This document shows positions 4,863 through 5,159 of a stretch of DNA of 9,297 nucleotides, piece after piece. The notes beneath the pieces are model-generated. The model was not told the DNA's origin and searched no databases. It worked only from the letters and a program-made list of their open reading frames with translations. Source of the stretch: a virus. Its lineage: Duplodnaviria; Heunggongvirae; Uroviricota; Caudoviricetes. Position 1 is the first letter of the stretch. Every line of letters begins with the position of its first letter. A program made the position numbers and the translations under genes. The stretch lies in the IMG/VR virus record IMGVR_UViG_2740892369_000003; one strand, written 5' to 3'.

Positions 4863-5159
4863 ATGGAATTTCTGATAGTTTTTGTTGTTGTTTTGGTCAT
4901 CATTCTTTTTGTTTTGCTAAGCATTAGTAAAAAGCTATCTCAAATGATTGAACATAGCTCTAATCGTGCAAAAGAAGAAGAGCATATAATTGATATAAAA
5001 GAGATTCTCTCTGATATAAAAATCACATTAGATGAAATAAAATACACAACAGATCTAATTGAACAGTATAAAATACCAACCCCAAACGAGAGAAAAGCAA
5101 TAGATCAATATCGTATTGACTTAGAAATCGACGAAATGCTAAGCAAAAGAAAAGACTAA
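4863..5159 (+). CDS. Single-pass membrane protein (98 aa), AT-rich cargo gene co-oriented with cI
   Basis: ORF track 4863..5159. GGAGGG lies 4 nt upstream of the ATG. N-terminal hydrophobic helix EFLIVFVVVLVIILFVLLSI, followed by a charged, likely helical domain. The gene is far more AT-rich than its neighbours. No family recognised. Confidence 0.6.
   Translation: MEFLIVFVVVLVIILFVLLSISKKLSQMIEHSSNRAKEEEHIIDIKEILSDIKITLDEIKYTTDLIEQYKIPTPNERKAIDQYRIDLEIDEMLSKRKD

Follow-up and report, generated by a model that had tools for sequence, protein, structure and literature searches.

The window analysed here, 9,297 nucleotides (nt) of the Caudoviricetes record IMGVR_UViG_2740892369_000003 in IMG/VR, is the early and immunity region of a lambdoid prophage, with its plus strand corresponding to the leftward direction of lambda. 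Between the repressor gene cI and the operators and promoter of the leftward operon (OL/PL) lies an open reading frame (ORF), hereafter orf98, which runs on the plus strand from an ATG at 4863 to a TAA at 5157-5159 and encodes a protein of 98 amino acids (aa), listed in RefSeq as WP_000394868.1, 'hypothetical protein'. A first-pass annotation, made from the letters alone, had described an AT-rich gene on the cI strand at this place. The guanine-plus-cytosine (GC) content of orf98 is 29.3%, compared with 43% for cI, 45% for the window and 43-46% for the flanking phage genes, and the operators, PL and an S24-type cI were all located around it, in agreement with that description (Table 1). The far edge of the slot is formed by N, downstream of which further PL-operon genes follow to kil and erf. 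The operator palindrome was matched six times in the window by pattern search, against 0.29 expected.

Table 1. Features of the window in and around orf98; residue numbers refer to the orf98 protein.
Feature	Position	Strand	Basis or detail
orf98 (WP_000394868.1), member of phrog_18389	4863-5159	+	ORF list, PHROG profile
Shine-Dalgarno (SD) sequence GGAGGG	4854-4859	+	3-4 nt 5' of ATG, read from sequence
Predicted N-terminal transmembrane (TM) helix, residues 3-21 (FLIVFVVVLVIILFVLLSI)	4869-4925	+	Kyte-Doolittle 19-residue mean 3.67; predicted local distance difference test (pLDDT) 87-92
Predicted heptad helix, residues 42-68	4986-5066	+	a = I42/L49/L56/T63, d = I45/I52/I59/I66
Conserved core of the family, residues 59-89	5037-5129	+	I.Y.TD.IE.YK[LI]P...ER..ID....D.EI; alignments A2, A4
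Intrinsic terminator (putative)	5164-5191	+	stem 5164-5170/5177-5183, then TTTTCTTTT
Mobile cassette (SD, ORF, terminator hairpin)	4853-5186	+	blastn, 81% over 334 nt to Citrobacter-type loci
Variable cargo slot, cI stop to OL	4825-5294		similarity breakpoints with sister phages
cI repressor, 235 aa, helix-turn-helix (HTH) + Peptidase_S24	4115-4822	+	PF00717 1.6e-17, PF01381 8.5e-07, phrog_4 2e-53; RefSeq ATG 4115
OR, three operator copies ATAAC-N4-GTTAT	4040-4053, 4065-4078, 4089-4102		between cro and cI
OL operators	5357-5370, 5382-5395 (25 nt apart)		overlapping PL-like promoter
PL-like promoter TTGACC-17-TATCTT	5370-5398	+	pattern scan
N antiterminator, first PL-operon gene	5593-5865	+	PF25694 1.1e-15, phrog_271 4e-34
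cro	3779-4003	minus	Pfam; RefSeq coordinates
cII	3391-3756	minus	PF05269, 1e-44
O-like replication gene	2386-3207	minus	
DnaB-type helicase	1013-2389	minus	

On sequence grounds, orf98 is a genuine protein gene under purifying selection. Frame 1 is open throughout, each of the other five frames holds 3-13 stops, and the probability of 98 codons without a stop, given the base composition of orf98, is about 1.2e-4 (5 of 20,000 shuffles were open). Homologues of the protein in Citrobacter are 72-78% identical; between the E. coli and Citrobacter clades the synonymous divergence (dS) is about 0.8 and the nonsynonymous divergence (dN) about 0.13, giving a dN/dS of 0.15-0.16, with 35 of the 58 differences at third codon positions. 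A HMMER family profile searched against 1.84 billion representative proteins retrieved only 14 clusters, all of 94-126 aa and of one shared architecture, conserved over its full length down to 24% identity. A chance ORF, or a decaying remnant in an AT-rich spacer, would be in keeping with the bare RefSeq entry, with the lack of annotation in the sole matching phage record and with one copy disrupted by an insertion sequence (IS). The selection and conservation data, together with the conserved SD and terminator, make it barely conceivable, and it was rejected.

The signals around the gene define how it is likely to be read. The first-pass annotation had credited it with a strong SD and its own intrinsic terminator, and both were found, the latter as a hairpin with a T-run that recurs in homologous loci. 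The hairpin has a 7-bp stem with six G-C pairs (-13.7 kcal/mol, z = -2.3) and is also readable as a terminator on the minus strand. Because consensus scans were not enriched over shuffles in this region (two terminators found against 1.9 expected, and promoters likewise), the terminator call leans mainly on conservation in other loci, a hairpin standing at the same place in L006, L008, L010, L044, L046, L049, L054, L056, L059 and L061. By analogy, it may be the functional counterpart of lambda tImm. In the 40-nt gap between the cI stop and the orf98 start, no terminator was detected by consensus scan, and a candidate promoter for orf98 at 4788-4816 (9/12 match) was rejected as being at chance level and not conserved. 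Since no convincing promoter was found and the shared cassette begins only at 4853, the cI promoters are most likely what drives orf98. This anatomy gives good support to co-transcription with cI, given the lambda paradigm and the lack of an intervening terminator or credible promoter, and from its position directly behind cI orf98 is probably made in lysogens. In the cI message it would be the second cistron; lysogens would transcribe it from PRM and, with lambda as the model, the cII-dependent PRE would also serve during establishment, and this message would end at the orf98 terminator, short of OL/PL. It is very probable that lysogens make the product, and that it is an accessory protein of the cI operon anchored in the membrane. 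At the other end of the message, the RefSeq start of cI (the ORF list has a TTG at 4085) is preceded at a distance of only about 12-25 nt by the third operator copy and by the hexamer TATAGA (4098-4103), so that the PRM transcript may, as in lambda, have little or no leader. Rfam gave no match anywhere in the window, which leaves a structured-RNA reading unsupported.

Comparison with related loci identifies orf98 as an accessory cassette, apparently promoterless and with a putative terminator of its own, in a slot prone to recombination. The unit of SD, ORF and hairpin is shared with Citrobacter-type loci that have unrelated cI genes, and outside it blastn found nothing in common with them on the cI side, nor downstream until the nutL region. 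Sister phages fill the slot differently. In SH2026Stx1, whose cI is 98% identical, similarity to the window ends at 4824 and restarts at 5295, and the interval holds a gene for a 113-aa DUF3024 protein (PADLOC PDC-S43, 7e-42) with 177-aa and 44-aa genes; in PA28, with a cI that is 84% identical, similarity ends at 4822 and restarts at 5305, and the interval holds a terminator and an opposite-strand ORF of 88 codons. The 3' half of the window cI is carried by 116 of 5,426 complete E. coli genomes. In 98 of them orf98 is attached, and the remaining 18 break exactly at the cI stop (query position 402) and have instead either the DUF3024 cassette or a pair of 120-aa and 42-aa genes. The existence of phages and genomes with the same cI and other cargo indicates that orf98 is dispensable for the immunity system of the window. 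Two features by which accessory cargo ('morons') is recognised, a slot filled differently in close relatives and a distinct base composition, are seen here. The alternative cargo behind the same cI lies at 4246-5618 of L011 (SH2026Stx1), 2938-4310 of L053 and 2146-2652 of L052; the 120-aa and 42-aa proteins are soluble and helical. In E. coli 3CM (L005 3761-5191), an IS3-family element splits orf98 within its 5' part, so that only a shortened 75-aa product (P0010) is annotated, and this strain is a natural orf98 knockout behind an intact cI.

The gene family recurs behind many different repressors. A member directly follows an S24-type repressor in the window and in loci L006, L008/L010, L044, L045, L046/L054, L049, L056/L057, L058, L059 and L061/L062, with the gene order cII-cro-cI-X-(OL/PL)-N, where X is the family gene. 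Nine of the 13 family lineages whose context was read (clustered at about 50% identity) adjoin such a repressor, and these include every lineage at least 32% identical to the window protein in global alignment. Across the loci the family gene starts 0-54 nt after the cI stop, in some with the arrangement TAGTATG or with abutting stop and start codons; it has 30-41% GC, compared with 43-52% for its neighbours, in 12 loci other than the window; and downstream of it, in every repressor-linked locus but L045, stands a G+C-rich hairpin that usually has a T-run. The 11 partner cI alleles are 18-74% identical pairwise and the family proteins 26-96%, and the two identities are uncorrelated (Spearman -0.13, p = 0.34). 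The window and L006 illustrate this, with family proteins that are 78% identical and cI proteins that have no BLAST match to each other. Along its full length the cI of L006, a Citrobacter prophage, shares 78% identity with lambda cI, so the L006 homologue sits exactly at the rexA-rexB position, which gives substance to the rexAB location proposed earlier from the window alone. This strict association of one family with many cI alleles appears to be previously undescribed. Literature searches found no paper on the protein accessions, phrog_18389 or the locus tags, and no relevant one on small membrane proteins downstream of lambdoid repressors; a paper on O26 Stx1a phages that compares early regions is silent on orf98 (PMC10042803). 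A combined search for nun, stk and rex precedents came back empty, and HK022 nun and 933W stk do not count as evidence here. In three Citrobacter-type loci a gene of 68-88 codons on the opposite strand converges on the terminator (L006 6324-6530, L008 6324-6548 and L049 4733-4960, all minus), and a similar-looking protein with the motif ...EI.GGA..E.I..G..IS.DAI... is encoded in PA28, which has no orf98 (L012 4361-4627, minus). This convergent gene had no Pfam or PADLOC match and is absent from the window; the terminator hairpin, readable on both strands, would suit convergent transcription.

The orf98 protein matches phrog_18389 from end to end (PHROGs v4; E = 6.4e-62, residues 1-98 on profile positions 1-98 of 98). 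This family, which has no assigned function, is the only PHROG matched, and all 17 diverse family members match it; the first-pass annotation had likewise recognised no family. No Pfam or NCBIfam match was found above cut-off, and sub-threshold matches in Pfam, NCBIfam and PADLOC to DUF5385 (0.014), MscL (0.034) and ZorB (0.017), driven by TM or coiled-coil segments, were rejected as compositional. With the C-terminal region alone as query, every protein retrieved (from E. coli, Citrobacter and Yersinia) matched the family in length and layout, and neither domain fusions nor relatives of another build appeared. A genome-contig scan and viral scans with P0014, P0016 and P0017 found none, and tblastn of INPHARED matched a single record.

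The earlier description of a 98-aa single-pass membrane protein with a charged helical tail fits the predicted structure. The TM helix is the sole hydrophobic segment, flanked by M-E before and S-K-K after, and all 17 aligned members have one such segment with K/R absent before it and present after it. From these flanking charges and the positive-inside rule, the N-terminus is predicted to lie outside and the remaining 77 residues in the cytoplasm, giving an N-out/C-in topology in the inner membrane. The tail of about 76 residues has 14 K+R and 18 D+E and is thus acidic (net -4). Its heptad helix has a clean pattern, and designed coiled coils were the only matches in a sequence-profile search of the PDB, which together suggest oligomerisation; it is likely that this helix drives it. 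Conservation in the family peaks at the YK.P turn and the adjoining helices rather than in the TM segment, with Y69, P72, D81 and E88 invariant and a variable linker. AlphaFold2 models show a continuous or nearly continuous helix from the TM segment to residue 68, a break at Y69-K-I-P-T-P74 (YKIPTP) and a second helix over residues 74-96. The helices agree between two runs (9 and 17 sequences; mean pLDDT 80-81), and with a predicted template-modelling score (pTM) of only about 0.3 the models do not fix how the helices pack.

It is proposed that the orf98 cassette, inserted between the prophage cI stop codon and OL, supplies a protein that works at the cytoplasmic face of the inner membrane and protects the lysogen from other phages. 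The product would be anchored by its one N-terminal helix with nearly the whole chain in the cytoplasm, where a variable linker would lead to the oligomerising heptad helix and a conserved acidic helix-turn-helix hairpin, Y-K-L/I-P...ER..ID...D.EI. Protection could come by superinfection exclusion, through disturbance of genome entry or of an early membrane-associated step, or by abortive infection, through membrane failure triggered on infection. To the whole statement, that of a lysogen-expressed membrane cassette of the cI operon that protects against other phages, we assign a probability of roughly 0.5; the anti-phage function taken by itself, which is hypothesised from position and precedent, stands at even odds or slightly below. 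It draws its support from the other occupants of the slot, namely rexAB in lambda, bstA in BTP1 and PDC-S43 in the sister phage. Owen et al. (PMC8585504) note that the cI-N interval, home to rexAB in lambda and to the abortive-infection gene bstA in BTP1, is an established mosaic hotspot, and that cI ranks with the most strongly transcribed genes of prophages. Cargo of this hotspot is expressed in lysogens, and rexAB and bstA belong to the best-known abortive-infection systems of prophages.

The likeness to lambda rexA-rexB lies in slot, strand and operon logic, the gene following cI, preceding OL/PL and having its own terminator, and in both cases a membrane component is encoded that is lysogen-expressed by position. 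The differences are substantial. In lambda there are two genes (279 aa and 144 aa), whereas orf98 stands alone and encodes 98 aa; RexB spans the membrane several times and is reported to be an ion channel (PMC8585504), whereas the orf98 protein has a single predicted TM helix; no equivalent of the internal lambda promoter pLIT was found for orf98, the 4788-4816 candidate being at chance; and BLASTP of RexA and RexB against seven family members returned nothing below E = 2.5. BstA of the Salmonella prophage BTP1 is likewise accessory, lies directly downstream of diverse repressors, presumably shares their promoter and has its own rho-independent terminator (PMC8585504). It is, however, a soluble protein that localises to sites of phage DNA replication and has a self-immunity element, 'aba' (PMC8585504), while the orf98 protein is small, membrane-anchored by prediction and helical. 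The two have no Pfam domain in common and share only cI synteny. In SH2026Stx1 and E. coli O39 F8704-2 it is the DUF3024/PDC-S43 cassette that fills this very slot, after a cI with 98% identity, and its breakpoints fall at the cI stop and just short of OL; the 113-aa protein of this cassette, encoded with the 177-aa gene, is unrelated and soluble, and PDC-S43 is a computationally proposed defence candidate.

HK97 gp15, P22 SieA, T4 Imm and lactococcal Sie2009 are small membrane-anchored phage proteins of superinfection exclusion that are expressed in the protected cell. The orf98 protein is likewise small, phage-encoded and predicted to be membrane-anchored, but no profile links it to them (the 17 members match phrog_18389 only), its genomic location is different, and its conserved domain is predicted to be cytoplasmic. 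A closer parallel in build is PdpSau of S. aureus prophages, which has an N-terminal membrane helix and a cytoplasmic C-terminus and causes abortive infection with membrane depolarisation (PMC10127798), so that an architecture like that of the orf98 protein is compatible with defence. PdpSau differs in its unrelated host, its linkage to lysis genes and its positively charged tail, in contrast to the acidic tail of the orf98 protein.

Several observations weigh against a defence function. The protein has no sequence similarity to known defence or exclusion proteins in PADLOC, Pfam, NCBIfam or the RexA/RexB comparison; in PADLOC-DB v2 the only defence model reached was ZorB, at 12.6 bits and through the TM segment alone, and Foldseek of the model against the PDB and BFVD gave 0 matches and no informative structural neighbour. 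The homology search that the first-pass annotation had suggested returned no characterised non-defence relative among the Pfam, NCBIfam, PADLOC and PHROG matches either. The TM helix is purely aliphatic, so that a channel is not obvious, and a conserved domain predicted to be cytoplasmic fits poorly with a block to entry on the periplasmic side. Where a gene sits within a hotspot says little about what it does, as the slot also holds non-defence genes, for example 434 hex (PMC3564112). Finally, the four most distant lineages (24-34% identity in the A2 alignment) do not stand beside a repressor and have no recognisable phage context, which indicates that the fold is not intrinsically tied to lysogeny. 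These are proteins of 113-126 aa from Pelagicoccus sp. (Verrucomicrobiota; L047 5001-5351) and from metagenomic sequences (L048 1229-1570, L050 1376-1756, L060 4001-4342), with upstream genes for a SHOCT protein, a sigma-54 activator and small same-strand unannotated products. Their occurrence outside the Enterobacterales points to a module of membrane anchor and YKLP hairpin that is older and broader than its use by phages.

The close tie to repressors also raises the idea that orf98 modulates the switch of its own prophage, being made with cI and tuning establishment or induction from the membrane. FtsH and HflKC act at the membrane, on its cytoplasmic side, where the predicted orientation would place the orf98 protein, and one variant has it acting on the FtsH/HflKC control of cII and cIII; with a cII gene present in the window, orf98 would also lie on the PRE transcript. 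The other variant has it limiting the RecA-stimulated autocleavage of the S24 repressor, and all 11 partner alleles are S24 autocleaving repressors, in some loci with overlapping or abutting stop and start codons that join the gene to cI itself. The precedent for this variant is 434 Hex, which in the available portion of the report is described as co-transcribed with cI from PRM and as blocking RecA-mediated cleavage (PMC3564112). As so described, Hex is a second protein made from the PRM cI mRNA in the lysogen, a likeness that orf98 shares only by anatomy, and the Hex frame overlaps the cI coding region, whereas orf98 is a separate cistron 40 nt downstream and its product is membrane-anchored by prediction (PMC3564112). 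A role in the switch is nevertheless unlikely, as phages with identical or almost identical cI, cro and operators lack orf98 and have unrelated cargo, the family assorts independently of cI, a foreign, AT-rich, cassette-like gene is typical of accessory cargo, the IS3 disruption is tolerated in one strain, and the distant relatives are found away from any repressor. Less likely still is the stronger form of this idea, in which the family, instead of being a generic defence gene, would be a dedicated, membrane-tethered and oligomeric partner of S24 repressors, sometimes translationally coupled to cI, that would tune the switch from the cytoplasmic side of the inner membrane and might, for example, gate the access of RecA or FtsH/HflKC to its components.

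The build of the protein bears in turn on a small membrane toxin or lysis-timing protein, similar to a type I toxin or a holin, that would be harmless at lysogenic levels and serve prophage maintenance or killing. Small size, a single N-terminal TM helix, a heptad helix prone to oligomerisation and an AT-rich cassette would all suit such a protein. However, no antitoxin or antisense partner was detected and Rfam gave no match; the conserved part is the soluble C-terminal hairpin and not the TM segment; constitutive co-expression with cI is hard to square with an unregulated toxin; and orf98 lies outside the lysis module. This makes a toxin highly improbable, although one with triggered killing would merge with the abortive-infection version of the anti-phage role preferred here.

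The distribution of orf98 places it in strains of clinical importance. Window positions 940-9237 are 99.99% identical to the Shiga toxin (Stx) 1a-converting phage Stx1a_10051 (LC744178) and positions 63-8237 equally so to a prophage of E. coli O26 RM10386; a 378-nt segment around orf98 is 100% identical in O26:H11 strain H19, as is an 872-nt query spanning it in O26:H11 strain 11368. A lysogenic-conversion gene that benefits the host in ways unrelated to phages (envelope, stress or colonisation), following the logic of lambda bor and lom and borrowing the repressor promoter, would agree with a membrane protein that is lysogen-expressed by position and common in Stx1a prophages of O26:H11 Shiga toxin-producing E. 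coli (STEC), with further occurrences in commensal, enterotoxigenic and animal isolates and in Citrobacter and Yersinia. For bstA, which occupies this slot in BTP1, the earliest link made was to virulence phenotypes (PMC8585504). The orf98 protein, however, resembles no known virulence or stress factor in Pfam or NCBIfam, its predicted cytoplasmic domain argues against a surface function, and strict confinement to the lambdoid cI slot across hosts is better suited to a phage-centred role, so that conversion of this kind is distinctly unlikely.

Lysogen-expressed accessory cargo behind a repressor is a kind of element already known, and the orf98 family is a new occupant of this niche: a compact cassette for a small, predicted membrane-anchored coiled-coil protein behind at least 11 repressors in E. 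coli, Citrobacter and Yersinia prophages. It is found in about 2% of complete E. coli genomes, and Stx1a prophages in the major STEC lineage O26:H11 (H19, 11368) are among its carriers. If it acts by exclusion, as preferred here, orf98 would shape which phages superinfect these pathogens, Stx2 phages and therapeutic phages among them, and would enlarge the defence repertoire by a very small effector. Should orf98 tune induction instead, it would have a bearing on how Stx phages are induced, and as a partner of the switch it would be a new membrane component of the lambda-type genetic switch across at least 11 immunity specificities. With a short gene, known conserved residues and natural comparators that carry other cargo behind the same cI, the role is directly testable.

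Other features of the window are of lesser bearing. Its first 62 nt and positions 9237-9297 are identical to both termini of IS600 in RM10386 (L002 9618-9679 and 8416-8476), so that the 9.2-kb segment is bracketed by IS600 ends. The window is probably a short-read contig broken where IS copies occur, or else two IS600 elements flank the early region in the strain of origin. The spacer between the terminator and OL (5192-5300) has no ORF, is G-poor and C/A-rich with a GC skew down to -0.6, and contains a direct repeat, CCAATCAAC.../CCAATCAAT..., at 5207-5224 and 5283-5300. Inside the PL operon, positions 6261-6755 on the minus strand encode a 164-aa protein with a coiled-coil N-terminus and two C-terminal CxxC pairs (phrog_1244), possibly another autonomously expressed accessory gene. 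Also in the PL operon, the plus-strand gene at 7570-7881 (7516-7881 in the ORF list) encodes a gp17-like protein that RefSeq names 'superinfection exclusion protein' (WP_000776959.1), and by this annotation the prophage already has one exclusion-related gene elsewhere.

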